Shown: piece by piece, positions 3,562-39,166 of the stretch
Numbering within the stretch: position 1 is the first letter of the stretch
Layout: each line of letters starts with the position of its first letter
Notes under the pieces: model-generated
Database searches by the model: none
Told to the model about the DNA's origin: nothing
The model's input: only the letters and a program-made list of their open reading frames with translations
DNA from: an uncultured Candidatus Micrarchaeota archaeon
GTDB lineage: Archaea; Micrarchaeota; Micrarchaeia; Anstonellales; Bilamarchaeaceae
Assembly: GCA_963714085.1 (NCBI GenBank)
Contig: OY970229.1
Coordinates: 480,001-544,000, forward strand
Direction of reading: 5' to 3'
DNA: 64,000 bases
Translations under genes and position numbers: made by a program

Positions 3562-3564
3562 GCC

Positions 3565-3732
3565 TCACTTCAAGAAGATATCCGCTACTTTTACTACCAC
3601 AATCAGGATGAGCGCCGCGGCCACTATGGTCTTCGGCTCTATCTCTATGCCCGCGAGCTTCATGTCCGATGAGAAGCCCACTATGCCTGCGGACGACATC
3701 GGCATGGATACCTGTTCCTGTTTATAAGCCAT
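3565..3732 (-). CDS. Preprotein translocase subunit Sec61-beta
   Basis: Manual translation MAYKQEQVSMPMSSAGIVGFSSDMKLAGIEIEPKTIVAAALILIVVVKVADIFLK (SAG motif, P before a single C-terminal TM); 55 aa, below ORF-track cutoff. Confidence 0.85.
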   Translation of the reverse strand: MAYKQEQVSMPMSSAGIVGFSSDMKLAGIEIEPKTIVAAALILIVVVKVADIFLK

Positions 3733-3785
3733 GGATAGAAATAGACGCTATAGGTATTAAAAGGTTGTGCGGACTAGTATTATCC

Positions 3786-4521: not shown

Positions 4522-4830
4522 ATGGCCTGGCCGCCTCCGCCCGTAGAACCGCAGCCGCCCGTTCCCGGACTCTGCCAGAGTTGCGGCATGCCCATGACCA
4601 AGGAAGGCGACTTCGGCACCAACGCGGACGGCAGCAGGAACGCTGATTATTGCGCGCACTGCTTCAGCAAAGGCGCTTTCACGGAGCCCGGCATGACGCT
4701 GGAGCAGATGATAGAGCGCCTTGTGCAGTTCGCGCCCAAGATGAACATGCCGGAAAACAAGGTCCGCGCCATGGCGAAGAAGAACCTGCCCAATCTGAAA
4801 AGATGGCGCGCGTCTGCCGGGAAAAAATGA
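4522..4830 (+). CDS. Putative zinc-ribbon protein
   Basis: CQSCGMPM...GTNADGS...YCAHC...LPNLKRW. Confidence 0.85.
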   Translation: MAWPPPPVEPQPPVPGLCQSCGMPMTKEGDFGTNADGSRNADYCAHCFSKGAFTEPGMTLEQMIERLVQFAPKMNMPENKVRAMAKKNLPNLKRWRASAGKK

Positions 4831-4833
4831 GCT

Positions 4834-5718
4834 TCAGAACAACGACGCGGGCGTCAAATCCGCGCGGCTTCTGACGTATTTTGATTCCAATTTAGCTATT
4901 GAATCGTCCAGACCATCAGCCGGAAGGCCGAGCGCGACGACTGCGTCCTTGAGCTCGTGGAGGTGCTCGCCGTAATCCGGGGATATCGGCAGCATGACGA
5001 ACCTCACCAACGCGTTCTTCGCGAGCGCATCCGCGAGGCCGGGGAGCAGCTTATCCTTGTAGACCGTATTCGCGGCGTTTATGATCCCTGCCAGCTGCGG
5101 GCCTGGCATCGTCGCCTCCTGCTCTTTCCCTACGCAGCGCATGAAGAGCAGCATCTTCGGGTGGTTGAGCGGCACGGTGCCCATCGCCATCCCCCTTCCC
5201 AGGAATATCATCCTTCCGGTATCGTCCGGCTTGGAGACGTCCGGGTGCTGGGAGCGGCAGACGACATAAGTGGGCTTGGCTGCGGCGAGCGCTGCGGAAT
5301 AAAGCAGGAGGTGCATATCCCTCCTGTTGCCGCTGAAGACCTCGGAATGGAGCAGCACGAGGAGCGTGGAGGCCTCCTGCTTGACCACGCAGCCTTCGGC
5401 GGCCGCTGCGAGCGCGCCTGACCTGTCCTTCACGCATACCAGGAGATAACCGGGCAGGGCTGTGTCCTTCGACTTCAGCAGACGCAGGGCTTCTTTCTGG
5501 TCCTTGGAGCCAAGCGAGGGCTGGAAGACCGTGAGACCGGCCTCGTCCATGATGCTTTTCAGGCGCCGCGGGTTCTCCCACGAAGGAAGCAGCTCGAACG
5601 CTGGGACGAGCGGCGGGGCTGCTTCGGGCTGGGGCGTAATCTCCGGCGTTATCTCTTCTTGCGCCTTGGTCGGGCTCGGCTTCGTCTTTTCCGGCGCGCT
5701 GCTTTTCTTCCCTGCCAT
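4834..5718 (-). CDS. Hypothetical protein
   Basis: 294-aa ORF with host-like codon usage. Confidence 0.7.
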   Translation of the reverse strand: MAGKKSSAPEKTKPSPTKAQEEITPEITPQPEAAPPLVPAFELLPSWENPRRLKSIMDEAGLTVFQPSLGSKDQKEALRLLKSKDTALPGYLLVCVKDRSGALAAAAEGCVVKQEASTLLVLLHSEVFSGNRRDMHLLLYSAALAAAKPTYVVCRSQHPDVSKPDDTGRMIFLGRGMAMGTVPLNHPKMLLFMRCVGKEQEATMPGPQLAGIINAANTVYKDKLLPGLADALAKNALVRFVMLPISPDYGEHLHELKDAVVALGLPADGLDDSIAKLESKYVRSRADLTPASLF

Positions 5719-5800
5719 GGGACTGCATAATCAGATGAGATTTAAATAAACTTCTCCAATCCACGCTTTTGGATGGCATGAAAAACGGTTCCGGCAGGAT

Positions 5801-6991
5801 TCATGCCTTCCTGAAAAGGGACCCGAACATCGAGAGCAGCCCGGATTTTTCCGCGCTTTCCGCCTTGCGGTCCGGATTCCCGGAATCCAGAAACTCGATC
5901 AGGCGCGCGACGTCCTTCAGCTCTGCTTCGAGCTCCTTTTTCGAGTATTTGGCGAGCTCTTCCCTGCGTTTGGCGAGGCGCCTGCTTTTCTCGTACTCCT
6001 CTTCGTAAGCGCGCCTCTCCTTCCCCAGGCTCCTCAGGTCTTCGACTGTCTTTCTCTCGCTTTCGCCCATCGCGGAGTAGAAATCCAGCGTCCTCTCGTC
6101 CAGGCCGTCCACTGCCAGGAAGCCGGCCTGGGCGAAGGAGCGCACGGCCTCGAAAAACGCCGCATTGGAGGCGACGATCTTCCTGAACCTGGAGGTCTCG
6201 GGGCAGATGTGCGAGAGCTTCTTCTCGCTGTAGGTCAAGCACTCGCAGAGCTGGCCGACATCGTACCTGCCGAAGGACGGATAATCTGAGAAAAACTGCT
6301 TGAGCTGGGCCATCGCCTCGTTTTCCGGGAAGGACGGGCAGTGCTCTTTCAGGCCCTCCAGCTCACGGAGCAGCTCGGCCACCGGCTTCGAGAGCAGCGA
6401 ATGCAGGTACGCGTCCCTCGATCTCCTCAGCGAGTCCAGGCCTTTCTCGAGCTCGCCGTGCCTGCGGACCTTCTCCTGGTCGATGGTCTCGTTTTCGAGC
6501 TCCGAGATATCGGCCAGCAGCTTCTCAACCCGCAGCTGCTCCCTTCTGAGCGCCCTGCCGCTCTCCTTGAGGTCCTCTTCGGCTTTCTCATAGCTGTCGC
6601 TCAGCTTGATGATACCGTCGAAATACGCGAACTCCTCTTTAGCGGCCGGTATCTTGCCCTCCCGTGCGAGCCTTGCGATGGATGCGAGCCTCTTCCCGGT
6701 GGCCTCAGGCAGATTGCCCTTCTGGAACTCGCTCGCGGCCCACCTTTCGAAATAGACGGAGTCCTTGGACAGTTCCATGGCTCTCTTGGCCATCTTTATC
6801 CGCGTGCTCACTGCCGGGTTCCAGACGGTTTTTCCCTTCTCCTGCACGTCCTCTATCTCGGCTATGAGCAGTTTCAGCTGCTTGGAAAGCTTCACCGTAG
6901 CCGGGCGGTGGCTGGTTCCAATCGTTTCCACTCTCTTTGCCAGGTCCTTGTGCGTTTTTTTAAGCTCGCGTATTTCCTCTTCGCTGATCAT
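5801..6991 (-). CDS. Hypothetical coiled-coil protein
   Basis: 396 aa, E/K/L-rich heptads. Confidence 0.75.
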   Translation of the reverse strand: MISEEEIRELKKTHKDLAKRVETIGTSHRPATVKLSKQLKLLIAEIEDVQEKGKTVWNPAVSTRIKMAKRAMELSKDSVYFERWAASEFQKGNLPEATGKRLASIARLAREGKIPAAKEEFAYFDGIIKLSDSYEKAEEDLKESGRALRREQLRVEKLLADISELENETIDQEKVRRHGELEKGLDSLRRSRDAYLHSLLSKPVAELLRELEGLKEHCPSFPENEAMAQLKQFFSDYPSFGRYDVGQLCECLTYSEKKLSHICPETSRFRKIVASNAAFFEAVRSFAQAGFLAVDGLDERTLDFYSAMGESERKTVEDLRSLGKERRAYEEEYEKSRRLAKRREELAKYSKKELEAELKDVARLIEFLDSGNPDRKAESAEKSGLLSMFGSLFRKA

Positions 6992-7072
6992 CCGGTTCGC
7001 CCGCTCCCCTTAGCTTATTATGATTATTCAGGTATTTAAATTCGTTGCCGTTTGTGTGCAGGCGGCATTGAT

Positions 7073-7085
7073 TGCAGGAGGAAGG
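7073..7085. repeat. att-like core, copy of tRNA-Leu(TAA) 3' end
   Basis: tgcaggaggaagg identical to 18325-18337. Confidence 0.75.
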
Positions 7086-7191
7086 GCCTCAGAACAGCTC
7101 TGAAAGTGCAAGGTAAATTTTTCTATTTTTTTCAAACTTAGTTGCTTGTCCATTTATTAAATTGAAATCAAAAGCTAAAAATAGAAAAAAA

Positions 7192-7470
7192 CTAATCTTC
7201 CGGCATTATTGGGCTTCTCTCATCTGTAAGAGCGAAATATGACTGAAATTTAGCCCGGTATGAAATATATTTCAGGATCCAGCTATGGAGGGCCTTGTTC
7301 CGTTTCCCCGTTATCAAAATATGAAGGAACTGAAAGAGGCAAGTTAAGACACCAATAATAGCAAGTACGATAACGACTATTAGCGATGGTATCATCCATA
7401 AGATCCTTATAATCAGCTCCCACCTGCTTGCTTTTTCAGAGAAGGCCACATTGAATTTAACGTTTTTCAT
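7192..7470 (-). CDS. Small membrane protein, DUF4389-like
   Basis: EKASRWELIIRILWMIP...FLHILITGKRNKALHSW...YFALTDERSP; ATG 7470. Confidence 0.75.
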   Translation of the reverse strand: MKNVKFNVAFSEKASRWELIIRILWMIPSLIVVIVLAIIGVLTCLFQFLHILITGKRNKALHSWILKYISYRAKFQSYFALTDERSPIMPED

Positions 7471-7535
7471 AATCCAAATTAGCAAGTATAAATTTAAATG
7501 ACTCTCGATAACAAATTTTAACGCTGAAATGGGTG

Positions 7536-7607
7536 GCCCTCGTAGTCTAGCCTGGATAGGACGCAACCCTCCGGAGATTGATTGAGGTTTAAATACCCGA
7601 CAAAGCA
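7536..7607 (+). pseudogene. Degenerate tRNA-Arg(CCG)
   Basis: Intact 5' half GCCCTCG-TA-GTCT..GGAC-G-CAACC-CT-CCG-GA; decayed 3' half (GGTTTAAATACCCGACAAAGC) cannot close the acceptor or T stems. Confidence 0.65.
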
Positions 7608-7751
7608 CCCTTTTTAACCTCTGGCCCTCAGACGCTCATTTGGTCGGACGGACACCACTGGTCTGAACTCAGACCAGATCTGAAAGCGCTAGGGCAGGAC
7701 TTCAGATCAGATATGAGTTCCTAAAAAGGCAGGAACTAAGAGTAGATTAAA

Positions 7752-7913
7752 ATGCAGGAGGAAGATGCCGAGACCAGGGCTCGGAACAGAACATTTCCAG
7801 TCCCGAACGATTGGCTCGGTTTCCATGCCTGCACTATCATTTTGGTTCAAGTCAAACCCTGTTTTGACCTCCTAACCGAGGGCTCTTCTGCGGAGAGAAC
7901 TATTTAAAGCTAG
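7752..7913. repeat. att core plus conserved left end of cassette A
   Basis: atgcaggaggaagatgccgagaccag...gttttgacctcctaaccga.ggct.ttctg.ggagagaactat.taaagctag, shared with 9622-9790. Confidence 0.85.
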
Positions 7914-7920
7914 CTCTGAG

Positions 7921-9078
7921 TTATTTTCCATTGCCGTTCAATTCAACCATATCCTCGTCATGAACCGGTCGGAACCACTTTTGCGCTATGAATGTCGGAA
8001 TCACTGCGCTGGTTATGACTACGGCGATAAGGACCGAGAACTGGATCTGATTGACATAACCTGCCTGATAGCCGAAAACGCTGGCAATCGTGCCGAAGGT
8101 CAACCCCGTGCTCATAAGCAGCGTCGTGTACATGCCACCTTCGGGGATGTATTTCTTGGCAAGGAAGTACACGCCTAGGAATTTCGTGATTTGTTTTAGC
8201 AGGAAGAGCGTGACAAACAAGCCGAATGCCGCAACGACCAAGGGAACAGACACCTTCATACCGTCGGTTATGAAGAAGAACGGCGTGATGAGGGCGTATG
8301 CCACGGTTCTGAGCCGATTCCTTACCGCCAGCGTTTCGGGGCTTTCCGTGAAATGCTTCGACATGGCAAGACCTAGTACGAAGGCAGGCAGGACGGCCTG
8401 GCTATCCCCTATCGCCGCGAAATAGCTGAAAATCAGTAAAAGGACAAAGATGTACTTGATTTCCGGCTCTATCACCTTGCCTTTGAGAAGAGGGTTATCG
8501 AAGACCAGATGGGAAAATTTCGTCGCGATCCATATAACTACTATTGAAACGGCGAGGAAAACCCAGGTGTAGAAGGAAGGCTTGATGAAAAGGATGGTGA
8601 GGGCTAGGACCGTGCAAATATCGGTTACAAACGTGGCAGCCATGATGAGTTTCCCCAGCTTCGTTTTCGTCAGGCCTGTCTCGACCAGCACCGAATACAC
8701 GACAGCCAGGGAGGTCGTAGACAGCGCGGCACCCGCGATGAGGGAGGCGTTCAGCGTCCAGCCAGCCATGTAATATGTGTACAGAAACGCGCCCAAGAAG
8801 GGCACGAGAAACGAAGCACAGCCTATCAGCATGCTCTCCTTGAATTTCTCCCGCATCAGGTCGACATCTACTTCGGCGCCTGCGAGGAACGTTAGTAAGA
8901 TGCTGGCGAATCCCGCAAGATAAGTCATCCACGGCTGGGCTTCGATGCCGAGATAGTTGCCTGCGATTACACCTAGGAGAATCTCGATGATGGCAACTGA
9001 AAGCCCAAGTCGAAGAGAGATGAGGCTAGCCAAAAATATCAGCATACCTGCTGCTAAAGGAATCAAAGTCGCATCCAT
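7921..9078 (-). CDS. Cation:proton antiporter (Na+/H+ exchanger family), fluoride-riboswitch associated
   Basis: Multi-TM; FLAGAEVD, ALSTTSLAVV, AATFVTD, TLLMSTGLTFG; ATG 9078 after SD AAGGTG. Confidence 0.9.
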   Translation of the reverse strand: MDATLIPLAAGMLIFLASLISLRLGLSVAIIEILLGVIAGNYLGIEAQPWMTYLAGFASILLTFLAGAEVDVDLMREKFKESMLIGCASFLVPFLGAFLYTYYMAGWTLNASLIAGAALSTTSLAVVYSVLVETGLTKTKLGKLIMAATFVTDICTVLALTILFIKPSFYTWVFLAVSIVVIWIATKFSHLVFDNPLLKGKVIEPEIKYIFVLLLIFSYFAAIGDSQAVLPAFVLGLAMSKHFTESPETLAVRNRLRTVAYALITPFFFITDGMKVSVPLVVAAFGLFVTLFLLKQITKFLGVYFLAKKYIPEGGMYTTLLMSTGLTFGTIASVFGYQAGYVNQIQFSVLIAVVITSAVIPTFIAQKWFRPVHDEDMVELNGNGK

Positions 9079-9102
9079 GGAGAACACCTTTCAACACGGA
9101 TG

Positions 9103-9261
9103 CTAAAACGATTTCAGGAATCCGTCTTTCCCCAATCTGAATTTATGCTCCGGGTTCTTGGGGCAAACGAATACATCGTCCTTCTTGGACAACTGATAGT
9201 TCATGCTGGAATTCATGCGGCATGTCGGACATACCATCGTATACTCACCTGTCATGGGCAT
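9103..9261 (-). CDS. Small putative zinc-finger protein
   Basis: MPMTGEYTMVCPTCRMNSSMNYQLSKKDDVFVCPKNPEHKFRLGKDGFLKSF (CxxC...CxxxxxH); SD GAGGT; start 9261 or 9255. Confidence 0.7.
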   Translation of the reverse strand: MPMTGEYTMVCPTCRMNSSMNYQLSKKDDVFVCPKNPEHKFRLGKDGFLKSF

Positions 9262-9275
9262 CTACCTCTTGAAAA

Positions 9276-9334
9276 GTAGAAGCTATCAGCCCGTTTGGGC
9301 GGTTTGGCTTTTGCCAGGTGAGCTTCATCGCCTA
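9276..9334 (-). promoter_or_regulatory. Fluoride (crcB) riboswitch
   Basis: Minus strand GGCGATGAAGCTCACC-TGGCAAAAGCCA-AACCGCCCAAACGGGC-TGATAGCTTCTAC matches the crcB consensus, including pseudoknot GAAGC/GCTTC. Confidence 0.88.
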
Positions 9335-9459
9335 TCAAAGATTACACAAATAATCTTTAATAGCATTTTGGTTTGATTGGTTTGGATTCCTGCAGTCCCG
9401 AGATTCGTATGGAGTACTACCCAAGAGTCCTGAGACCTGGTCTCTGAACATAAACATAA

Positions 9460-9634
9460 AGATTGGAACCTCGGTTCGAATCTCCAAAACCGCATTTTGT
9501 GTCTTCAGCTACCATAAAATCGTCGAAGAATGCCATTAGGGAACTGAAGAAAATAAAGCAGCAAAACAGAATGGAACCATTGGTTCGGTTCTTTTTCCTG
9601 CGGATTCGAACTAAAATGATGATGCAGGAGGAAG
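9460..9634. repeat. Conserved right end of cassette A plus att core
   Basis: agattggaacctcggttcgaatct...gtcgaagaatg...gaaaataa..cagca...tggaaccattggttcgg.tcttttt..tgc aligns by eye with ~18163-18336. Confidence 0.8.
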
Positions 9635-9790
9635 ATGCCGAGACCAGAACTCGGAGCAGAGCCTTCTCTGCCCCGTCCGTTTGGTTCGAGTCTTCCTTCT
9701 CCAATAACATTTTGGTCCAGGTCAGAACAAACCTCTTGTTTTGACCTCCTAACCGAAGGCTGTTCTGAGGAGAGAACTATATAAAGCTAG
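9622..9790. repeat. att core plus conserved left end of cassette B
   Basis: Homologous to 7752-7913. Confidence 0.85.
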
Positions 9791-9903
9791 GTCTCTGGTT
9801 TCGCTATTTTCCACAATGCCTCGAAATATGTTTCGAAGCTTTTAACCGCTTCCTCGCTTTCGATGAGAAACCCTTTCGGCTCGCGGGTAAAGGAGACCGC
9901 CAT
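9787..9903 (-). pseudogene. C-terminal gene fragment resembling TrmB-type regulator tails
   Basis: ...REPKGFLIESEEAVKSFETYFEALWKIAK; no plausible N-terminus; the stop codon lies within the cassette end sequence. Confidence 0.5.
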
Positions 9904-9977
9904 GGAAGGCGAGGGAGTGCAACGGCCAGTTCTCGCTGAACGTGCTGAAGCCGGATCATTGAGGGTACGCACTGCAC

Positions 9978-10757
9978 CTAAGCTGATCGCAGTAGCGCCG
10001 CATCCGGATACCGATAGGCGCTGCCGATGCCATCCTGCCGTACCAGTTCCGCAAGGGCTTGCGGTGAGAATGCAGCTACTGAGAGGGCCGCCGTCCCCAT
10101 GGCTGATTCTATGCCTTCGAGGTCGTCCACCAGGTGTATCGGCATCGCTGAAAAACTGCCCTTTCTTTTCAGGCATTCGATTATACCCACCTTTTCTAGG
10201 ATGGCGTCGCGGGTCAGTCCAACGCGCCTCAATTCCACGAGCCTGGCGCAAACATCCGGTGGTGCCCTGAAACCAATAACATCCGGCGTCCCTACTGACT
10301 CTGGTCTGTGGATGGTGAATTTCCGCGCCGATAGTCTGTGAACTAATATGTTTCTAAGTACATGCAAGCATCCGCCATCATCGAACAGGCGCTCTATCCC
10401 GTATTCGCCTGATTTGGGCCGATAGGATAGGATTCCGTGGCCAAACTCAGGAAATTCGGCTGCAAGGAAGATGAACAGGTCGGCAATCCCAGGCCTTGGG
10501 TGGAATACTCGCTCCGGCATTTCGAATCCGAGTGTGTTGTCAAGATCCCAGAAAACCATGGCCCGCCCTGCTTTTGCCCACTCTTGGCAGGTCCGGAAAA
10601 CCAGGATGGTGAATCCGATTTCGTTCCCGATGATTCCTGCCTTCGCGTCTTCTTTACGCGTGCAGATAAGCTGCTCCATCAGTGCTTTTTGCCGGCTTAA
10701 GAATTGCCGCAAGCGGGGCTGGACATTTTCGCTTATGGTTGATATGAGCGCACCCAT
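9978..10757 (-). CDS. HAD-like hypothetical protein
   Basis: VFWDLDNTLG (motif I), ILSYR (motif II-like), HLVDD (motif IV). Confidence 0.6.
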   Translation of the reverse strand: MGALISTISENVQPRLRQFLSRQKALMEQLICTRKEDAKAGIIGNEIGFTILVFRTCQEWAKAGRAMVFWDLDNTLGFEMPERVFHPRPGIADLFIFLAAEFPEFGHGILSYRPKSGEYGIERLFDDGGCLHVLRNILVHRLSARKFTIHRPESVGTPDVIGFRAPPDVCARLVELRRVGLTRDAILEKVGIIECLKRKGSFSAMPIHLVDDLEGIESAMGTAALSVAAFSPQALAELVRQDGIGSAYRYPDAALLRSA

Positions 10758-10802
10758 GTTAGTATCAGTGCAATTTCAAGTTTATAAATTATATGGTATT
10801 TA

Positions 10803-11840
10803 TTGTATAGTTATATGTGTTCTCAATCGCGCGCGTGCCGCGCTGGCAGCAGGGAAAAAGTCAAGGTGGCGTTCATCGGAGCCGGGAATATCGCAGCGCA
10901 GCACATGCGAGCGCTTGTCGCATTCCCAGACGTCGCGGTGGAAGGGGTTTGCGACGTCAGTAAAAGCGTCCTTGAGCAAAGGCGTCTGGAGTTCGGCGTA
11001 GGTACGTATTCGTCCGTGGGCGCCATGCTCCGCTCGGTTTCTCCTGACGCCGTGTTCATCTGCCTTCCACCCTACGCCCACGGTGGTGCAGAGCGGGCCT
11101 GCATAAGCCGTGGCATCCCGTTCTTGGTTGAGAAACCACTGTCCAATGACCTGTTCCTTGCCAGGAAAATAGCAGCCGAGGTCCGCAGGACTGGACTGCT
11201 GACCTCCGTCGCCTACATGAACCGTTATAGGCGGAGTGTCCAGAGGGCCAAAGAACTGCTCGGCAAGCATCCCCCCGTTCTGATTGACGCTGGCTGGCGT
11301 ATAGGCACGCCGCTGGGCCACCCTTGGCTGACCCAAAAACGCCTCTCGGGAGGGCAGCTCCTCGAACAGACCACACACTTATTCGACCTCATCAGATACC
11401 TTTGTGGGGAAGCCGCCAGCGTCTATTGCTGCGGCGCTAGGGGCTTCGTTCCAAGGAGCCGCGCATACGATACGGATGATGCGACTGTCGTGAGCCTGTG
11501 CATGAGAAACGGTGCGGTAGCCTCGATACAGAGCTCCTGGTCAAGCGGATTATGCGACATGATACATATCAGGTTCCTCGGACCGGCGATAATGGTGGAA
11601 CTTACTGGCTGGAACCAGGATGCGAGGATAGTCACCAAAAGATCGAGTGTGGAGATAAGCGGCGAAGAGGATATTTTTGCCATCGAGGACAGGGCCTTCC
11701 TGCATGCAGTGAGGAGTGGCGACTCTTCCGGCGTACTCAGCGACTATGGCGAAGGCGTGAGGAGCCTGGAGCTGAGCATTGCAGCCAACATGAGTCTGGA
11801 AACCGGAAAGCCGATCAAACTTCGTGGAGACGGGAAATGA
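10803..11840 (+). CDS. Gfo/Idh/MocA family oxidoreductase
   Basis: KVAFIGAGNIA, LPPYAH, LVEKPL, SGGQLLEQTTHLFD; start may be ATG 10815. Confidence 0.92.
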   Translation: MYSYMCSQSRACRAGSREKVKVAFIGAGNIAAQHMRALVAFPDVAVEGVCDVSKSVLEQRRLEFGVGTYSSVGAMLRSVSPDAVFICLPPYAHGGAERACISRGIPFLVEKPLSNDLFLARKIAAEVRRTGLLTSVAYMNRYRRSVQRAKELLGKHPPVLIDAGWRIGTPLGHPWLTQKRLSGGQLLEQTTHLFDLIRYLCGEAASVYCCGARGFVPRSRAYDTDDATVVSLCMRNGAVASIQSSWSSGLCDMIHIRFLGPAIMVELTGWNQDARIVTKRSSVEISGEEDIFAIEDRAFLHAVRSGDSSGVLSDYGEGVRSLELSIAANMSLETGKPIKLRGDGK

Positions 11841-12315
11841 TCTCCTTTACCGCATCTTCCACCCGTCCGGAGATGTCGATGGTCGTGCCGTAATCTAACC
11901 TGGCAACCAGCCTGTAGACGTCTCTGACAGCCGTTTTTCCGTAAGGCGCGGCCCGCTTTCTGTCCCTTTCGATGCAGATCTCAAGCGGCGCATTCAGGCT
12001 GAATACGAAACCCCGGTAGGGGGACAAGCGGCCCATCAGGTCGTCTATGGCTTCCCTGTGGTAAAAGCAGGCGTCAAAAATCACAATCCGGTCGCCGTCA
12101 AGGTTTTTCCTTGCAGCCGGAGCCATCAGCCTGTCTGCTTTGATGAAGTTTTCAACAGGGATGCAGCCGATTTTCGTATCGATGACGTCCAATCCATTCT
12201 CGGCAAGGACGGCATCAACCGAAACATAAGCGGCTCCCATAGCTGCAGCTATTTTACTTGCAATGGTTGTCTTGCCGCAGCCCAGCGGCCCCCTTATGAT
12301 TACGAAATATGCCAT
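11815..12315 (-). CDS. P-loop small-molecule/nucleotide kinase (AAA_33/gluconate-kinase-like)
   Basis: IIRGPLGCGKTT, VIFDACF, APLEICIERDRKR. Confidence 0.85.
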   Translation of the reverse strand: MAYFVIIRGPLGCGKTTIASKIAAAMGAAYVSVDAVLAENGLDVIDTKIGCIPVENFIKADRLMAPAARKNLDGDRIVIFDACFYHREAIDDLMGRLSPYRGFVFSLNAPLEICIERDRKRAAPYGKTAVRDVYRLVARLDYGTTIDISGRVEDAVKEIISRLHEV

Positions 12316-12478
12316 GGCAGGTCCCAGCGTTCCGGATTGGTTGGTTTCCCTTTTGTATCCCCCTCCCTGGTATTAAATATTCGCCTCAGCCAGCCGCCAC
12401 GGGAGTCCAATTAAAATCTTACACATTTATTTACCTAACAAAACATTATTATACTTTTTCATGGTATAATTAGCAATC

Positions 12479-13660
12479 ATGAATCATTTGGCGTATGCAG
12501 GAAATACTGCAGCTGAAGTTGCGCAGAAAGGCGCTCCGGCAAAGACCAAGATTTCCCTACTGTCGAAAGGCATCGCCTTCGACCTGAGTCTATTCAAGGA
12601 CTTCCCAGGCACTTTCTATGATAACCAGTATGTGTACGGGAGGACCAGCCAGGGTGCCCTGCCTGAGCACAGACTGCCTCAGATACTGAGACTGGGGGAC
12701 GGCGTGGTTACCGCGCTTTTAAGGCGCCGGAACAGCCCCTGGCAACTGAAACTAGAGGGCGAAATTCCGCGGCTGTATTTTGGAGGCAAGTACGTCCAGG
12801 ACGTGGAGCTTCCGGAACGGCCCCCATATTTCGGAAAAGTGCTTGGCGACGGCATTCGGAGCGAATCAGTTATAGCTGTCGCTGGAGAGAGCACGCCAGG
12901 ATTCTTCCTTTATCCGAGATGCTTCTATTTCGGCAGGGGCGAGCCCTGTGGCTTCTGCTCGCTCAAAGGCAACCGTGCGACTTCCGGTAGAGCTATGGCC
13001 ATGGACTTCACGGAAGACCTCGTCGGCAAGGCGACGCGGCTTTTCCAGAATACCGCGTGGAAGGGCATCCCGGTAATATCCATCAGCGCCGGAACCCCAG
13101 CCACGGACGAGGAAAGCATGGAGCAGGTAATCAGGCTGATAAGGGCGGTCTACGACGCCCTCGACCCGAAACTGCCCATCCACGCCCTCGTCCATCCGCC
13201 GAACGACCTGAACCTCATAGAACAGTACAAAAGGGCCGGCCTCACGTCCATCGCTTTCAACCTCGAGGTTTTCGGCAGGGATGCTTTCGCGCGGCTCTGC
13301 CCGGGCAAGGAGAAATTCTATGGTTACGACAGGTGGCTCGAAGCGCTCCGAGTGGCGAGAGACGTTTTCGGCAAGTACTCCGCCTTCTGCGGCCTCGTTT
13401 GGGGTCTTGAGCCTGCCGCCAGCACGATGGAAGGCAACAGGTATTTTTTGGAGAACGGTATCGGCATCGCATCCAACATATTCCACGCGGACCAGCATTC
13501 GCTGATGGCCGCATATTCGCATCCTGCAGAGGAGCTGATACTGGAAGTCGCCATGAACCAGCGGCAGCTATACGCTGAGCATCCTGACGCGAGGACCATC
13601 TTTCCCGTCAGCATGAGGAGCACGCTCGACTGGGAAGTTAAACGGGGTGACCTTGGGTGA
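12479..13660 (+). CDS. Radical SAM protein with CX8CX2C motif
   Basis: RCFYFGRGEPCGFC, ISAGT, AFNLEVF, CPGK, GLVWGLE. Confidence 0.8.
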   Translation: MNHLAYAGNTAAEVAQKGAPAKTKISLLSKGIAFDLSLFKDFPGTFYDNQYVYGRTSQGALPEHRLPQILRLGDGVVTALLRRRNSPWQLKLEGEIPRLYFGGKYVQDVELPERPPYFGKVLGDGIRSESVIAVAGESTPGFFLYPRCFYFGRGEPCGFCSLKGNRATSGRAMAMDFTEDLVGKATRLFQNTAWKGIPVISISAGTPATDEESMEQVIRLIRAVYDALDPKLPIHALVHPPNDLNLIEQYKRAGLTSIAFNLEVFGRDAFARLCPGKEKFYGYDRWLEALRVARDVFGKYSAFCGLVWGLEPAASTMEGNRYFLENGIGIASNIFHADQHSLMAAYSHPAEELILEVAMNQRQLYAEHPDARTIFPVSMRSTLDWEVKRGDLG

Positions 13661-14787
13661 GCGTGTACGTCGATTGCGTGGGCTGCGAGCAGAGGAAACT
13701 GGACGCGCAGAGGCTCGTGAACTGCTTCAGGGCCAATGGGGCGGGGATTGTCAGCTCGGCTAGGAAATGCAACCACGCGGTGCTGGTGACCTGCGCAGTT
13801 GATTCTTCCAACGAAGAACGGTCGCTTTCCATGCTGGACGCAGTATCGCGGGAGTTACCGGAAGGTGCCGGGATGTACATCGGGGGGTGCCTGCCGTCCA
13901 TAAGCCCCGGCAGACTTTCCGGCTATCATCTTCACGGGACATTCTCTCCGCGGACTATGGGAAGCCTTGACGCTATGTTCAACTTTGCAGTGCCAATGGA
14001 TGCAATCGCCAGGCCGAATCGGTCAGTTTTCGATTCCAGTGCGGAACCGATCGGAGTGGTTTCCCCCAGGCAGGCTTACGACGATGCGAAAGCGGGGTTC
14101 AAGGTCGTAATAGACGACGGCTGCCTGATGGGCTGCTCGTACTGCGTGATAAAGCGAGCCACAGGCAGCCTAAGGAGCATGAGCGCGGAAAGCATCCTGG
14201 CGCAAATCAAGGATGGCATCTCAAGAGGCGAGAAGACGATAATGCTCATGGGCGGGGACGCTGGCGCCTACGGGAAGGACATCGGAACCGGGCTGCAGCG
14301 ATTGCTCTCCGACATCCTAGCAATTCCATCAGAGTTCAGGCTCTTCATACACGATTTCAACGTGAACTGGCTGATACGTGGCGCGGAAGAGTACCTCCGC
14401 GTCTTTTCATCCTCTGGCGGCAGGAAAATCGGCGCAATATGCTTCCCCATCCAGTCTGGCAGCGACCGCATACTGGCCTTGATGAAAAGGGGCCACACGT
14501 CCGGGAGCGCGGCCGAGGCGCTTAAGCAGGTCCGCTCTGTTTCGCCCGGCATGGGCCTAGGCACCCATGTGATAATCGGTTTTCCTAGCGAGGCTGACGC
14601 TGATTTTGCAGCTACGATGGGCATGCTCGAATACGTCGGTTTCGATTTCATCACCTGCTTCCCATACTCTGAGCATGCGTTGGCCGGTTCCGCTGCCCTG
14701 GCTGGAAAGGTCGGACCTGAAGCCGTGGAAGCCAGGTTCGAAAGAATATCCTCGGTGTTTGGGGACCGAGTGAAAATAGTGAGATGA
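13657..14787 (+). CDS. Methylthiotransferase-like radical SAM (UPF0004 + rSAM) lacking TRAM
   Basis: GCEQRKLD, TCAV, GGCLP; GCLMGCSYC; PIQSGSDRILALMKRGH; IIGFPSE; ends at 376 aa without TRAM. Confidence 0.88.
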   Translation: MSVYVDCVGCEQRKLDAQRLVNCFRANGAGIVSSARKCNHAVLVTCAVDSSNEERSLSMLDAVSRELPEGAGMYIGGCLPSISPGRLSGYHLHGTFSPRTMGSLDAMFNFAVPMDAIARPNRSVFDSSAEPIGVVSPRQAYDDAKAGFKVVIDDGCLMGCSYCVIKRATGSLRSMSAESILAQIKDGISRGEKTIMLMGGDAGAYGKDIGTGLQRLLSDILAIPSEFRLFIHDFNVNWLIRGAEEYLRVFSSSGGRKIGAICFPIQSGSDRILALMKRGHTSGSAAEALKQVRSVSPGMGLGTHVIIGFPSEADADFAATMGMLEYVGFDFITCFPYSEHALAGSAALAGKVGPEAVEARFERISSVFGDRVKIVR

Positions 14788-14791
14788 CGGC

Positions 14792-16675
14792 ATGGCGGTC
14801 TTGTGCGTTGCCAGGGATTTTACAGCGCTTCACGGTACGAGAAGCGTGAAAAGGGACGGGTTCAGGGCCGAGGTCAGGCTCTCCGGAAATATCTCCAAAG
14901 GTTTTGTCAGCGGCCTGGACCACGCAACGTTGCAGAAAGCCCTGGGTGAAACCGTGGCGCGGCTGGAAGGTTCGTATCTCGACGACGTGGTCGGCAGGGC
15001 AACCAACGAAAACATTGCCCTTTATATAATGCACTCGCTGGCCGGCCTGCCCGTGGGTTCCGTGCTGGTGAGGGAAGGCCAGGGGCAGTCAGTGGAAGTA
15101 TCTTCGTCAGACCTGGATTCAAGCGCTTATCCGGCATACTTATATTTGAGCAGGGCGCAGAGCTTGCTGCTCAGGGATAAGATTCTAGAAGCCACGGCTG
15201 CCGCGGAGGCAGCCATAAGGCTGGACCCCGCCGTGGCCGAAGCCCACAATCTCATGGGCAGATGCCAGAAATACCTTGGGCACAATGACCTGGCTGCTGA
15301 AAGCTATGCGAGGGCTGTGGTCCTGCAGCCTAATTTCGGAGATGCCTACCGTAACCTCGGGAATGCGTACCTTGAACTAGGCCGGTACAGTGAGATGGCC
15401 GAGGCGTTCGCCAGGGCGACGGAGCTGACACCCGGTTCGGCTTTAGCATTCAACAACCGCGGTTTCGGGTATCAGAAGCTTGGTGACCTCAGGCGGGCGC
15501 TTGAGTGCCATTCGAAGGCCATAGAACTTGACCCGCATTACGCTGAAGCCTATGAGGACAGGAGCAAGGTGCACGAGGCACTTGGAAATGCCGAGATGGC
15601 CAGGCAGGACGTCGCGACGGCGAAGGAACTGATATCGTCAGGAACTGACACCTATTCGCCAATCACGCCATATTATGATGGCAATGCCATGCCCAGATAT
15701 GTGCCGCCGGATCTGTATTACGGTATCGCAGTCTATAACGAGGAAGGGAACATTCGCAGGTGCCTGGATTCGCTTGAGCGGCAGAGCTTCGAGGGCAGGG
15801 TCGAGACCATCATCTGCCTCAACGGCTGCACTGACCGGAGCGAGAAGGAAGCCCATGAAGGCAAGGCGAAGTACCCAGGGCTGAACGTAAAAATCATACA
15901 CAGCAAAAAGAAGGGCAAGGCGTTCGCCCAGAACCAGATTATCCGCTCAATCAGGGACAGGACCGTTCCCATAGCCTTCATAGACGCCGATGTGGTGCCG
16001 GAAACTGACTGCATGGCAGTTCTGGAGCGGGAGTTACGCAGCCTGAAGCAGCTCGTTGCCGTGGGCACATGGCCTGAACCTGAACGCGGTCCACGGCAGT
16101 CCCTCTGGCAGCGATTCCTTTACTGGATATTGTATGCCCGGGCCTTTTACCCGCAAGCCGAAGTATCCGGGCATGACGTTTCTGCATACAAGCGCTTTGC
16201 CAGGCAAAACCCACAGCCCCTGGTGAGTCCTGAGTTCGAGATGCGCTCGAAGATATTCTTTCACGGTAGGACGTTCATGCTGAGGAATGCCTCCTTCTTT
16301 CGCCTGCCGGAAGATGCAAACGTGGCAGACGATACCTACCTGCCGAATTTCATCCATACGACATACGGTCCGGGTACCGTAAGGATAAGATACGACGCCA
16401 AGGTGCTCTACAAGCCATATCTCTCGCTAAGGGCGCATTTCAAGGCCTACTGGCGGGTGTACTCAGACCTTCGGAGAATGGACCTGGAAGGCGCTTTTGC
16501 GGAGTCTAGGAAGCTGGAAAAGACGAGGCTTGACTGGAAGTTCATATTTTCAAAAGGCATTGCCACGTCCCTGCAGTTCGCGATATACAGGTTCGTCGTA
16601 GGAGTTGAACGGGCGCTCTACCATATGCTTCCGGAAAAGAAGCTGGGCGAACTCTGGTATTATCAGAAAAAATAG
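14792..16675 (+). CDS. Fusion: degenerate QueD/PTPS-like domain + TPR repeats + GT2 glycosyltransferase
   Basis: N-terminal FTALH...GLDH..LQKAL...LEGSYLDD..RATNENIALYI; several TPRs (AEAHNLMG, DAYRNLGNAY, AFNNRGF, AEAYEDRS); IAVYNEEGNI, NGCTD, GKAFAQN, FIDADV. Confidence 0.8.
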   Translation: MAVLCVARDFTALHGTRSVKRDGFRAEVRLSGNISKGFVSGLDHATLQKALGETVARLEGSYLDDVVGRATNENIALYIMHSLAGLPVGSVLVREGQGQSVEVSSSDLDSSAYPAYLYLSRAQSLLLRDKILEATAAAEAAIRLDPAVAEAHNLMGRCQKYLGHNDLAAESYARAVVLQPNFGDAYRNLGNAYLELGRYSEMAEAFARATELTPGSALAFNNRGFGYQKLGDLRRALECHSKAIELDPHYAEAYEDRSKVHEALGNAEMARQDVATAKELISSGTDTYSPITPYYDGNAMPRYVPPDLYYGIAVYNEEGNIRRCLDSLERQSFEGRVETIICLNGCTDRSEKEAHEGKAKYPGLNVKIIHSKKKGKAFAQNQIIRSIRDRTVPIAFIDADVVPETDCMAVLERELRSLKQLVAVGTWPEPERGPRQSLWQRFLYWILYARAFYPQAEVSGHDVSAYKRFARQNPQPLVSPEFEMRSKIFFHGRTFMLRNASFFRLPEDANVADDTYLPNFIHTTYGPGTVRIRYDAKVLYKPYLSLRAHFKAYWRVYSDLRRMDLEGAFAESRKLEKTRLDWKFIFSKGIATSLQFAIYRFVVGVERALYHMLPEKKLGELWYYQKK

Positions 16676-16697
16676 CTGTGGATGGAGGGTGAGAATC

Positions 16698-18017
16698 ATG
16701 CAAAAGAAGCTGAAACGAGGGCCTCCGGCCCATGAACGTCCGATGTGGCGCCTTGCACGAAACATGACGCCTTGCGCGACGGAGATAGTGAGTGGAAAGG
16801 GCATATATTTCAGGGACAGCAGTGGCAAGGAGTACATGGACCTGACCGCCCAGACACTCAACCTGAACCTCGGCCACCGCCATCCGTCCATAATGCGGGC
16901 CGTGCTTGCGAAGCTGCGTGAAGACGGATTTACCTACTACGTGTCGCCCAGATTCGGAAACCGCCACGTCTCGCAATTGGCGCAGAAGCTGGTTTCGCTG
17001 GCTCCTGAGGGTCTCAACAGGGTGAACCTGCACTTGTGCAACGGAAGCGACGCGAACGAGGACGCGATAAAGCGGGCGAGGAAGTACCACGACGGAAAGA
17101 GGATGACGATAATCTCGTTCAAGGGAAGTTTCCTGGGGACTTCCTGCGAATCCATCAGCGCGTCCGGTGGCAATTTCTACAAGGAGGCGTGCCTTGGTGG
17201 CTCAGGGCAATATGTCTTTCTGGACTCCGTGATGCCGAATAGGATACCGAAGGGGTCCAGCCTCGAAGAGGAGGTCCAATCCAGGCTCATGGACGTGGAA
17301 CAAACTATCAAAAGAAGGAGGGACATAGCCGGAATCATAATGGAGCTAGTCCCTTTCAACGCAGGAGTCATCGTCCTTCCGAGGGAATATGTGAAGGGGA
17401 TAGAGAGGATATGCAAGGAGAACGACGTGGCGCTGCTGGTGGACGAGGTCCAGACCGCCTTCGGCTGGTGCGGCGACGTATTCGCGTCGAATGTATATGG
17501 CATAAGGCCCGACGTGATAACCCTGGCCAAGGGGATGACGGCCGGCTTCCCTGCCCTGGCGGCAACAGTCTTCAAGGCGAAATACGACGTCCTGACGGGC
17601 GGGACTTCCGAGAACACATTCGGCGCTCAAACGCTCGGCTGCGTGGCGACGATCGCGAACATCGACTATCTGGTTTCGTCCGGCATAATGGATGCGATAC
17701 CAGCAAAACACGCCTTGTTCATGGAGCACCTGGAAAGGATGAAAGACGCGTATCCGTTCATAGGCGACGTCAGGGGAATAGGGCTGATGTTCGGAATAGA
17801 CTTCGTTCGCGCTGACGGAACGCCCGACATGGAGACGAACATCGACGTCTACCAGGCGGCGTTCATGCGTGGATTGTCAGTAAACGTCTCGACCTCCCAA
17901 AGGGGAAAACACAACGTGATAAGCCTCAAGCCGCCCCTGACGATAACATTAAGGGAAATAAACGAGGCTATGAGTCGTCTGGGCGATGCCATGCGCTCCG
18001 TAGCGAAGAAAAGATAA
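16698..18017 (+). CDS. Class III PLP-dependent aminotransferase (divergent)
   Basis: GKGIYFRD..GKEYMD, NLGHRHP, LLVDEVQTAFG, PDVITLAKG, GDVRGIGLM, KPPL; ATG 16698 after SD GGAGGGTG. Confidence 0.92.
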   Translation: MQKKLKRGPPAHERPMWRLARNMTPCATEIVSGKGIYFRDSSGKEYMDLTAQTLNLNLGHRHPSIMRAVLAKLREDGFTYYVSPRFGNRHVSQLAQKLVSLAPEGLNRVNLHLCNGSDANEDAIKRARKYHDGKRMTIISFKGSFLGTSCESISASGGNFYKEACLGGSGQYVFLDSVMPNRIPKGSSLEEEVQSRLMDVEQTIKRRRDIAGIIMELVPFNAGVIVLPREYVKGIERICKENDVALLVDEVQTAFGWCGDVFASNVYGIRPDVITLAKGMTAGFPALAATVFKAKYDVLTGGTSENTFGAQTLGCVATIANIDYLVSSGIMDAIPAKHALFMEHLERMKDAYPFIGDVRGIGLMFGIDFVRADGTPDMETNIDVYQAAFMRGLSVNVSTSQRGKHNVISLKPPLTITLREINEAMSRLGDAMRSVAKKR

Positions 18018-18162
18018 TAGAGCTGCACAGTTTTTGGCATGCCTTTGACACGTCAGTTCTTTGCCAAACTTTTTTCCTAAAAAGGTAGGTGCAGAAGATA
18101 CCGAGCCATAAGAAGAACCTTGCCCACGAGATCCCAGACTAGGGCTCGGAGCATCCGCTTAG

Positions 18163-18336
18163 AGATTAGAACCAAAGTTCGAATCTTCAAGAGTGCATTT
18201 CGTTTTGTCAGATACAACAAATATGTCGAAGAATGATGCTAAAATAATTAGAAAATAATTCAGCAGAAAAGATTGGAATCATTGGTTCGGGTCTTTTTCT
18301 TGCAGTCCCGAACCTTTGATTCTATGCAGGAGGAAG
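18163..18336. repeat. Conserved right end of cassette B abutting tRNA-Leu
   Basis: Homologous to ~9460-9634. Confidence 0.8.
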
Positions 18337-18409
18337 GATTTGAACCTTCGAAGGCACTAAGCCAGCGGATCTTAAGTCCGCCGCGTTTTCCGGACTTCGC
18401 TACTCCTGC
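18325..18409 (-). tRNA. tRNA-Leu(TAA)
   Basis: GCAGGAG...GCGGA-CT-TAA-GA-TCCGC, long variable arm, GGTTCAAATCC, CTCCTGCA. Confidence 0.96.
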
Positions 18410-18436
18410 ATGATTAGAAAATATTTATCCAGACTG

Positions 18437-19387
18437 CTATAAAAGCCTCGCTTTTTTGCCGTCGAAATAGATGTCCTCCTCGAACCGGACGCCGAAATCT
18501 TCGAAATACGCGCTCGGCTCTATGGCCATGGTCGCCCCGGCGAGCTTGTCCTTCGACTTCATGCTGAGGCGGGGGTATTCGTGCACCTCCAGGCCGATGC
18601 CATGGCCGATGGCGTGGGGCAGCTCGGGAAGATTGTGCCTCTTGAACAGCTTTCTGGAGAACGCCGTCAACTCCGAGCCGGTGTCCAGCTCCGGCATCGC
18701 GTCGATTATCTCGTTGAACACTTCCTGGAGCTTCAGGTAGACCGCCTTCTTCTTCTCCTCGCCCATGAAGAAGCACCTCGTGAGGTCCGATGAGTAGTAT
18801 TCGGCGCGCACGCCGAAATCCACGAGCACCATGCTGTTTATCTTCGCATTCCCGGTCCGGTAGTGCGGGAAGGAGGAATTGCGGTCTGCGGCCACTATTG
18901 CCTTGAACGACACGTCCAGGTCGCGCTCCAGGGTCCCGGCCATGAGCTGCTCCCTGACCTGTGATTCGGTCATGCCCTTCTTTATGTCCAGGGATTGCAA
19001 TATCTCCCTGGCGCTGTGCACCGCCTTCTTTACCTTGTCCACCTCCTCCATGGTCTTGGCCATGCGGCGCCTGCAGAGCTCCTCCGAGACGTCCACCGGC
19101 GTGCAGAATTTCTTGAGATGCTCCGTGAGGCGGAAGTACATGCTGCTGCCGTCGACGCCCACCTGCCTGCCCTTGGCCAGCTTCCGCAGCTCGGCTATCG
19201 GGTCCTGATATGGGACGACGCTGCCGCTGAACTGCTCCTTGGCTATCTTGAGGTTCATCCGCGGCACGAGCAGCACCTGCGTGCTGCCGTCCACGAAAAG
19301 GAAGGAGTGGTCGATGTCCACGTTCGAGTAATGGTAGAAGTTGGCGTTGAAATGCTCGTCCCTGTAGAGAAGCAGAGGGTATTTCAT
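18437..19387 (-). CDS. Xaa-Pro aminopeptidase (M24 family)
   Basis: PHY, VDFG, SDLTR, HAIGHGIGLEVHE, AIEPSAY, GVRFEED. Confidence 0.93.
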   Translation of the reverse strand: MKYPLLLYRDEHFNANFYHYSNVDIDHSFLFVDGSTQVLLVPRMNLKIAKEQFSGSVVPYQDPIAELRKLAKGRQVGVDGSSMYFRLTEHLKKFCTPVDVSEELCRRRMAKTMEEVDKVKKAVHSAREILQSLDIKKGMTESQVREQLMAGTLERDLDVSFKAIVAADRNSSFPHYRTGNAKINSMVLVDFGVRAEYYSSDLTRCFFMGEEKKKAVYLKLQEVFNEIIDAMPELDTGSELTAFSRKLFKRHNLPELPHAIGHGIGLEVHEYPRLSMKSKDKLAGATMAIEPSAYFEDFGVRFEEDIYFDGKKARLL

Positions 19388-19476
19388 GGTGGAGAATCCC
19401 GCCTCAGGATTAAATTGCTTGCGGTCGGGCCGTGCTCACGCATCCATCTCGTGGGAGCCGGAATCGTCCTCGAGGA

Positions 19477-19860
19477 TCATACGAACCCCACCTTGGCCTT
19501 AGACCTCAGGCCCACGACCCTCAGGCGCTCGGCTTTGAGCCGCTGCTTGAGCCCGCGGTCGTTGGTGCACACCACCGCGCGGTTCTGCCTGGCGTACTCG
19601 AAGAGCCAGTCGTCCACCGGCAGCTTCGACTCCACCTGCTTCGCCTTCTCCCCCCTGGATTCTAGGATCTTCAGCGCGAAGCGCGCCGCGGCCCCGGTCC
19701 TGCCCGGATTCCTGGCGATGCCCCGGAGCTCGCCGACGACCTTGGAGGGCACCACGAGCGTGAAGGGCCCGTCCAGCAGGCGCTCGAGCTCGGTGAACAC
19801 GTCCACCTTGAACTGGTAGGGTACGAGAAGGAAATTGGTGTCCATAATCACTTCGGTCAT
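19477..19860 (-). CDS. PIN-domain ribonuclease (Fcf1/Utp24-like)
   Basis: IMDTNFL, VVGEL, VDD, VCTNDRGLK. Confidence 0.9.
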   Translation of the reverse strand: MTEVIMDTNFLLVPYQFKVDVFTELERLLDGPFTLVVPSKVVGELRGIARNPGRTGAAARFALKILESRGEKAKQVESKLPVDDWLFEYARQNRAVVCTNDRGLKQRLKAERLRVVGLRSKAKVGFV

Positions 19861-20045
19861 GGCAGTTATTAGAAGCTAATGGGATTAAAATAGAATAGGT
19901 GGAATATATACGTTACGGGAGCGAAAATGGCATTTGTTGGTATATACGGTTAGAAGAGGAGTTAAAAGGAATGTTTAAAAATGTTTTGGTTCATAAACAC
20001 TTTAGTACAAAAATTTAAACAACAATAGAGAGCGGGTGATGAGGG

Positions 20046-21587: not shown

Positions 21588-21623
21588 AGTTTCTTTTTTA
21601 TTTTCCTTTAATTATCTGGCGCC

Positions 21624-39077: not shown

Positions 39078-39166
39078 TGCCGCAGGCCAGATTTGAACTA
39101 GCGACCCCACCGTGTCCGAAATGGTTTTCCTTCAGCGGTGTGCTCTCCCAGCTGAGCTACTGCGGC
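39078..39166 (-). tRNA. tRNA-Phe(GAA) with 16-nt intron at 37/38 (39114-39129)
   Basis: GCCGCAG..CACCG-CT-GAA-G[GAAAACCATTTCGGAC]A-CGGTG..GTTCAAATC..CTGCGGCA; mature length 73. Confidence 0.93.

Follow-up and report, generated by a model that had tools for sequence, protein, structure and literature searches.

Three att-bounded units without an integrase, probably accreted in tandem at the 3' end of a tRNA-Leu(UAA) gene in a Micrarchaeota archaeon

The 64,000-nucleotide stretch of Candidatus Micrarchaeota DNA analysed here (the window, corresponding to positions 480001-544000 of a 1.57-Mb genome and numbered from its first letter) contains, between 7073 and 18336, three units that are bounded by att sites, lack an integrase and have probably accumulated in tandem at the 3' end of a tRNA-Leu(UAA) gene. 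Each of these units carries attP arms of a family of tyrosine integrases of ~400 aa that targets tRNA genes, mostly those for tRNA-Leu. The units would have entered by recombination between attP and attB at the tRNA 3' end, with each newcomer displacing older units away from the tRNA. For units 2 and 3, the two larger ones, we consider it marginally probable that they represent a non-autonomous cassette lineage with a conserved pair of ends and replaceable cargo, rather than two losses of an integrase in place. To move at all, such units would need an integrase provided in trans, or would have to travel in cis with an autonomous element beside them; mobilisation in trans appears plausible.

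The framework of the array is a 12-nt core, TGCAGGAGGAAG. In tRNA-Leu(TAA), its reverse complement covers the final four bases of the T-stem, the acceptor strand on the 3' side and the discriminator. An earlier reading of this DNA, made without database searches and referred to below as the sequence-only reading, had placed the core at 7073, 7753, 9623 and 18325, and a scan of the window returned exact copies at these four positions together with a fifth, minus-strand site at 552 that has one mismatch. These five matches compare with 0.36 expected by chance, and five were reached in none of 100 shuffles. The region had also been divided into units of ~0.7, ~1.9 and ~8.7 kb, which agrees with the measured extents of unit 1 (7073-7752, 0.68 kb), unit 2 (7753-9622, 1.87 kb) and unit 3 (9623-18324, 8.70 kb). 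The layout is as follows:

5801-6991, minus strand: DUF7118 gene, chromosomal flank outside core copy 1
7073-7084, plus strand: core copy 1, exact match, the outermost direct repeat and the border with the chromosomal flank
7753-7764, plus strand: core copy 2, exact match
9623-9634, plus strand: core copy 3, exact match
18325-18336: core copy 4, exact match, inside tRNA-Leu(TAA)
18324-18410, minus strand: tRNA-Leu(TAA), the integration target (ARAGORN; Rfam, 60.8 bits)

Each of the three units is flanked by direct repeats of the tRNA 3' end, a crossover core of 12-13 bp in the arrangement of an attL and an attR site, and the same core also brackets integrase-bearing elements in three related genomes (G012, G026 and G032). 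The GC content is 40-53% in units 1 and 2, 49-59% in unit 3 and 57-62% in the flanks.

No integrase or transposase accompanies the array, and the statement of the sequence-only reading that none lies in the units or elsewhere in the window was upheld by every search made. PF00589 has three matches in the genome, all of them outside the window (genome 284707-285906, 1287825-1289132 and 1308419-1309636), and tblastn of seven family integrases, three from this genome and four from relatives, gave a best E value of 0.47 against the window, with no remnant. Scans of the unit open reading frames (ORFs) with Pfam and NCBIfam found no recombinase or transfer gene, and none of 41 further ORFs of at least 90 aa lying outside window positions 4800-21600 matched an integrase or transposase Pfam family. 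An integrase inside the unit and beside the att site, as in an autonomous tRNA island, is therefore lacking from all three units. The family itself is widespread among relatives, with tyrosine-type members of ~400 aa in 32 of 98 other genomes of the family (E 1e-60 or better), and the seven integrases compared show 40-75% mutual identity. The three members in the source genome sit at tRNA-Leu(GAG), tRNA-Glu and tRNA-Asn. At 10 of 30 integrase loci examined, ARAGORN places an intact tRNA of like orientation immediately upstream; seven of these are Leu genes and the others Glu, His and Asn, three of the Leu genes being intron-bearing and mislabelled Ser by the program. Several further integrase loci show intron-bearing tRNA-Leu 3' ends by eye.

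Two of the integrase loci of the source genome have features of their own. At genome 1308139-1315150, the integrase element at tRNA-Glu(CTC) has repeated distal arms behind it, at ~1312.5, 1314.1 and 1315.1 kb; 12 nt of the tRNA end recur exactly at 1315138 and in degenerate form near 1314.2 kb, and the locus resembles a further tandem array. The tRNA-Asn 3' end is directly repeated over 14 nt at genome 1258496 and 1289255, bracketing 30.7 kb, and the third family integrase adjoins that tRNA.

Units 2 and 3 have both of their ends in common, here termed type B. In blastn comparisons against the whole genome, the left ends (7752-7920 and 9622-9794) align at 79.4% identity over 175 nt (E 4e-35) and the right ends (9420-9634 and 18123-18336) at 71.1% over 218 nt (E 7e-22), which substantiates the earlier claim that the two larger units combine common ends with unrelated cargo. 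The four ends are:

7765-7920, plus strand: type-B left end of unit 2 (nhmmer, full-length profile, E 4.7e-51)
9405-9622, plus strand: type-B right end of unit 2, with an inner hairpin-module copy at 9428-9496 and GGTTCGAATC-type motifs (nhmmer, inner module, E 5.4e-5)
9635-9797, plus strand: type-B left end of unit 3 (nhmmer, E 5.2e-52)
18108-18323, plus strand: type-B right end of unit 3, adjoining the tRNA on its 3' side and containing an inner hairpin module (18133-18199; nhmmer, E 2.3e-3)

An alignment of ten left-end copies from eight genomes gives the order reverse-complement core, hairpin CCGAG-N7-CTCGG, AACAGAAC, forward tRNA-Leu copy and 'box' arm. The forward copy is a degenerate T-loop, T-stem and acceptor 3' strand of tRNA-Leu, and the box arm (TTTTGACCTCCTAACCGAGGGCTGTTCTGAGG...) is conserved and terminates in a TATA-like element. 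The hairpin carries paired changes to CTGAG/CTCAG in G026, and the same paired change is seen in the right-end copy of G023; a hairpin-module profile built from left ends matches the inner part of both right ends in the window on the same strand. In the left end of a metagenome contig, the forward tRNA-like copy is identical in 21 of 21 bases to the 3' end of the source genome's tRNA-Leu(GAG), and the core follows the isoacceptor occupied, reading GCAGGGG in G056 and G001 versus GCAGGAG in the window genome.

Every type-B left end thus holds two inverted copies of the tRNA-Leu 3' end ~50 nt apart (7765-7836 and 9635-9707 in the window), and inverted pairs of this kind also lie at 2620-2705 and 4755-4840 of locus L039 and at 1925-2005 of locus L112. 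The junction with the tRNA runs via the reverse core in the units of the window, G012, G026 and G030, and via the forward copy in G056 (contig C15), where two integrase-less units stand on an intact tRNA-Leu(TAG) in the layout tRNA, box, cargo, integrase-arm remnant, reverse core, hairpin and forward copy. Because each of the inverted cores is found joined to tRNA-Leu in different genomes, both appear to have served as crossover sites.

Several other interpretations of the left end were tried and set aside. An ORF running from the ATG of the core (7752-7907) was rejected as a gene, the substitutions between the two copies being mostly non-synonymous by eye. As a functional tRNA or known RNA, the left end receives no call from ARAGORN at default settings or from Rfam at gathering thresholds, and the copies read have a disrupted T-stem and a C at position 33 of the anticodon-like loop. 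A displaced target tRNA, integration at a tRNA 5' end and an inversion were considered as origins of the inverted tRNA-like segment, and none of them was settled upon.

Copies of these ends in related genomes connect the array to autonomous elements. A 401-nt probe spanning the junction of units 2 and 3 matched 13 of the 98 other family genomes and neither of the two congeners. In G012 (contig C29), a type-B left end closes a 24-kb element whose integrase lies directly beside an intron-bearing tRNA-Leu and whose cargo comprises type IV secretion system pilins, a TraG/VirB4-like ATPase, Cdc6, a Piwi protein (prokaryotic Argonaute), restriction-modification genes and GmrSD. The 3.6-kb element closed by this end in G026 (contig C2) encodes an MscS-type channel and an integrase. 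Integrase, promoter arm (P'arm), core and left end are contiguous in G056 (contig C28) and in one metagenome contig, an order that looks like a circular attP or a tandem junction. We take the type-B left end to be the integrase-distal arm of attP, because it closes the integrase-bearing elements of G012 and G026 and takes part in these attP-like junctions. The sequence-only reading had proposed a search for copies of the ends beside other cargo or an integrase, and these genomes provide both. An exact IUPAC pattern of the box arm recovered seven loci in genome contigs, two in metagenome contigs and none in viral contigs; six of the seven genome-contig loci come from relatives, five of them at places already known, and the remaining one is a bacterial record (Lampropedia) that is probably a chance match.

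The type-B right end was searched for in the 98 other family genomes and in 175 other genomes of the order (matches in two of the 175, both integrase-less, with G030 added from the family search), and is represented by five copies in four genomes, two in the window and the others in G028, G030 and G023. All five units also have a type-B left end, and none contains an integrase homolog by Pfam or tblastn; no autonomous element with a type-B right end was found among the 98 family and 175 order genomes. What they carry differs from unit to unit: the fluoride module, the biosynthetic cluster, an ORF of 307 aa without a family, a protein with a SHOCT domain, and a HEPN/nucleotidyltransferase pair accompanied by a regulator of AsnC type. 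An end-to-end alignment of the five right ends covers about 230 nt, is nearly free of indels and shows 55-73% identity, and its blocks of conservation are the hairpin, the GGTTCGAATC-type motifs and the 20 nt adjoining the core.

Unit 1 carries a second type of end, type A, and not the ends common to units 2 and 3. The proposal of a stack of three cassettes with shared ends accordingly survives for the 1.87- and 8.70-kb units and fails for the 0.68-kb unit, whose parts are:

7085-7110, plus strand: truncated type-A left end with a CCTCAGAACAGCTCTGAAAG motif (read against G050 contig C40, locus L033 and the element at genome 284.6 kb)
7192-7608, minus strand: cargo, a 138-aa DUF4389 membrane protein (Pfam PF14333, E 5.8e-15)
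7600-7752, plus strand: type-A right end, the tRNA-proximal arm

The right end of unit 1 shows 81.5% and 77.1% identity to the arms left of both cores (genome 284456 and 304437) of a 20-kb integrase-bearing element that occupies tRNA-Leu(GAG) in the same genome (284578-304590), and type-A right ends are also found in G050, G049 and G032. The type-A right end and the type-B left end are both related to arms of autonomous elements. About 25 nt are left of a unit 1 left arm that should measure roughly 115 nt, and the intact arm precedes an integrase gene elsewhere. Unit 1 also contains, at 7536-7576, a stretch that looks like a tRNA-Arg 5' half and overlaps the beginning of the DUF4389 ORF. Its identity to the gene for tRNA-Arg(GCG) at genome 337293 is ~80% over 41 nt, and it may be left over from a further att site.

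The cargo of units 2 and 3 had been described as a fluoride unit and a biosynthetic operon, an assignment with which Rfam, Pfam and NCBIfam agree:

7921-9087, minus strand: unit 2, 388-aa cation:proton antiporter (Na_H_Exchanger / CPA2; Pfam E 8e-38; NCBIfam TIGR00932)
9103-9261, minus strand: unit 2, 52-aa zinc-ribbon-like ORF between riboswitch and antiporter (weak Pfam match)
9270-9341, minus strand: unit 2, fluoride riboswitch aptamer (Rfam RF01734, 41.6 bits against a gathering score of 34)
9798-18017: unit 3, cargo span (Pfam, NCBIfam)
9800-10800: unit 3, ORFs without family matches
10803-11840, plus strand: unit 3, GFO/IDH/MocA oxidoreductase
11815-12315, minus strand: unit 3, small P-loop kinase
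12479-13660, plus strand: unit 3, variant radical SAM protein
13657-14787, plus strand: unit 3, MiaB-family radical SAM protein
14792-16675, plus strand: unit 3, TPR-GT2 glycosyltransferase
16605-18017, plus strand: unit 3, class-III aminotransferase

In unit 2 the riboswitch is located upstream of the zinc-ribbon ORF and the antiporter gene, which together form its putative regulon. The antiporter is present in two of the 98 other family genomes. In G011 (contig C15), which belongs to another genus, the stretch from riboswitch to antiporter, including the 52-aa zinc-ribbon-like ORF, has 78.8% identity over 1412 nt to window positions 9332-7932, and it sits in a 5-kb element that starts with a tRNA-Leu(CAG) and an integrase. 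This identity exceeds the 65% to congener G049 over a query spanning the tRNA and the adjacent housekeeping M24 peptidase gene, and the homology between G011 and unit 2 ends at the edges of the fluoride module. Cargo modules may thus move between element backbones, the fluoride module of unit 2 and G011 being an example. Several iteron-like repeats (GAGGTCGTAATT..., GAGGTCAAA...) lie between the integrase and the fluoride module of G011 (positions 4540-5200 of locus L116) and may mark a replication origin of the 5-kb element. For the aminotransferase of unit 3, no ortholog was found in the 98 family genomes, the best matches, 24-34% identical, being paralogs. The fluoride-antiporter module, the biosynthetic cluster and the DUF4389 protein would all be accessory DNA carried along with their units.

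The content of the site differs among close relatives. In congener G050 (contig C40), similarity to the window runs through the DUF7118 flank and the outer core and ~20 nt further (77.7% over 318 nt). Beyond this lie a different type-A unit without integrase, in which an ATPase-like and a deaminase-like ORF were named by reading the sequence, then a core and, where the contig stops, the beginning of an integrase. Another contig of G050 begins in a type-A right end and continues through tRNA-Leu(TAA) to the M24 peptidase gene, and in congener G049 a type-A right end lies behind the same tRNA. Because the content of G050 differs beyond the outer core, gene order is not identical in close relatives. 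The sequence-only reading would have been undone by the same gene order in relatives, by insignificant similarity of the ends or by a lack of other copies, and none of these was encountered; G050 has different units at the same site.

The target gene and its surroundings vary as well. The tRNA-Leu(TAA) gene is intronless in the source genome and has one or more introns in both congeners, G030 and G012. In another genus (G030 contig C7, G012 contig C29) the gene order is HD, PAC2, tRNA-Leu on the plus strand, elements and, further on, M24 peptidase; in the window (2452-4517 and 18437-19387) the tRNA-Leu is on the opposite strand relative to that genus and adjoins the M24 peptidase gene. Since strand and neighbour both differ from the order in G030 and G012, the tRNA-Leu with its array seems to be inverted between the genera.

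Sequencing data were available as Logan contigs only, from three runs of one study, and were mapped to 6500-19000. Independent contigs of run X1 give depth in 30 of 30 bins of the stretch. Loose ends at 7751, 7792, 18324 and 18370 were considered as signs of excision and rejected; they resemble the paralogous unit at tRNA-Leu(CAA) and are therefore attributed to cross-mapping.

A possible though doubtful alternative is that the units are inert fossils, that is, autonomous elements that lost the integrase and most other genes in place, which is the classical origin of cis-mobilizable elements (CIMEs); the likeness of their ends would then reflect shared descent only and no present function. A number of observations lean this way and weigh against a mobile cassette lineage. 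Unit 1, with about 25 nt of its left arm, is probably dead. A 0.9-kb unit at tRNA-Leu(CAA), in the same genome outside the window, has kept the integrase promoter arm while the gene is gone, and it looks like the product of a simple deletion. In the G056 and G050 units, too, the integrase-proximal arm survives up to the promoter and the gene is missing, the pattern expected of a deletion. Identity between the arms of units 2 and 3 is only 71-79%, and so gives no sign of recent movement. No integrase in the source genome adjoins type-B arms, and units 2 and 3 may therefore be stranded here. No excision product, circle or empty site was seen, and the Logan contigs over 6500-19000 show no joints, a result that at contig level weighs neither for nor against mobility. 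The three other type-B units all occur in one other genus, the G030 unit sitting at a tRNA-Leu(TAA), a distribution that ancient vertical inheritance with local replacement of cargo could also give. What speaks against fossils is the uniformity of the type-B units: with five of five lacking an integrase or a remnant of one, the same deletion end points would be needed five times, the 230-nt arm has kept its length and motif blocks at 55-73% identity, unlike sequence left to free decay with indels, and the cargo is wholly different between copies. Five independent deletions with the same end points seem less likely than a single integrase-less ancestor, and a non-autonomous lineage is favoured for units 2 and 3 on this ground. 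We also entertain, tentatively, the more specific proposal that units 2 and 3 form a self-standing integrase-less lineage of DPANN type with a dual-core attP, which could insert at any tRNA-Leu gene in both possible orientations, relying on integrases of resident conjugative-type elements and exchanging cargo modules.

Two further explanations can be given very little credence. The sequence-only reading saw an integron-like gene-capture array; on an integron-like platform, a dedicated recombinase would capture cassettes singly at a fixed site and the cassettes would be expressed from the platform. Archaeal integrons were reportedly described in 2022, and a stack of exchangeable cargo units with conserved boundaries at one site is indeed a point of resemblance. 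However, no integrase adjoins the array, which abuts the tRNA gene and the DUF7118 gene, and the locus has neither an IntI-type platform integrase with attI and a cassette promoter nor attC-ended, promoterless cassettes in one orientation. Its recombination sites are tRNA 3'-end cores in direct repeat, with arms of 160-230 bp that are common to ordinary integrative/conjugative-type elements; the cargo has its own riboswitch and promoter regions and is of mixed orientation; and the identical architecture recurs at several tRNA genes in this genome and in relatives. From that proposal, then, the family of ends with exchangeable cargo is retained, on the strength of end pairs around differing cargo in five copies from four genomes, and the integron-like array is not. 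It is just as improbable that the repeated ends are duplicated regulatory or small-RNA genes, or an artefact of assembly. The left end does have hairpins and a TATA-like box, and the paired changes from CCGAG/CTCGG to CTGAG/CTCAG would suit a structured RNA, but the ends lie beside integrases and tRNA genes in many genomes and Rfam at gathering thresholds finds no RNA family in them. A collapse or duplication artefact is unlikely because the copies are diverged and not identical, and the depth given by the independent contigs of run X1 also speaks against it.

Viewed against known systems, the locus is a CIME-like accretion in a DPANN-type archaeon, and its kind is already known. In passages of PMC5704250, a CIME is an element whose integration and transfer genes have been lost and that has kept attL and attR, after which further site-specific integrations take place at the 3' end of the target gene. 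The units described here resemble the CIMEs and tandem accretions of integrative and conjugative or integrative and mobilizable elements of streptococci, as outlined there, in lacking integration and transfer genes, in keeping attL and attR, in being stacked at a tRNA 3' end and in the proposed movement through the integrase of a neighbour or helper. They differ in their archaeal host, in standing three in a row with no autonomous element in the array, and in that two of them belong to an end-pair lineage seen only without integrase. That five of five members lack an integrase suggests spread and cargo turnover as non-autonomous units and not one-off decay. The tycheposon arrays of Prochlorococcus islands, in the portions of 10.1101/2020.12.28.424599 that describe them, arise by successive integrations, with nothing but a partial tRNA copy between one element and the next and with each newcomer displacing older elements into the island, and similarly involve elements that target tRNA genes with tyrosine recombinases, adaptive cargo, degenerate remnants and extra partial tRNAs. 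The host there is of another domain, the comparison being one of architecture, and the present units have long conserved arms on both sides, the left one with two inverted copies of the tRNA 3' end. The putative integrative and conjugative elements and cryptic integrated elements of Thaumarchaeota (PMC6563490) are likewise integrated archaeal mobile elements, whereas the lineage here is of DPANN type. To this known kind the locus contributes a three-deep stack without an autonomous member, an end-pair lineage found only without integrase, the sharing of a cargo module with an autonomous element at another tRNA-Leu, the turnover between congeners and the two inverted cores.

Little is known about gene gain in archaea of this group, whose genomes are very small. 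The locus marks tRNA-Leu genes as hot spots of turnover at which short integrase-less units carry useful cargo, here a putatively fluoride-controlled antiporter and a biosynthetic cluster; in the arrays examined, such units are more numerous than autonomous elements. Provided that helper integrases mobilise them, these units would be an archaeal counterpart of CIMEs and tycheposon remnants, and would offer a simple archaeal site-specific recombination system consisting of short arms, a 12-nt core and a defined integrase family. Should the dual-core proposal prove true, they would amount to a distributed system of gene capture and exchange for very small archaeal genomes. If they are fossils, they would form a record of repeated invasions and of precise loss of integrase genes.

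Some features of the window lie apart from the array. At 39078-39166, Rfam reports a tRNA that ARAGORN missed when run without its intron option and that becomes a tRNA-Phe with a 16-nt intron once introns are allowed; the archaeal RNase P RNA lies directly beside it, at 39253-39473. Between 23858 and 32265, three large adjoining minus-strand ORFs of 1004, 658 and 1084 aa have no Pfam family at E 1e-5.

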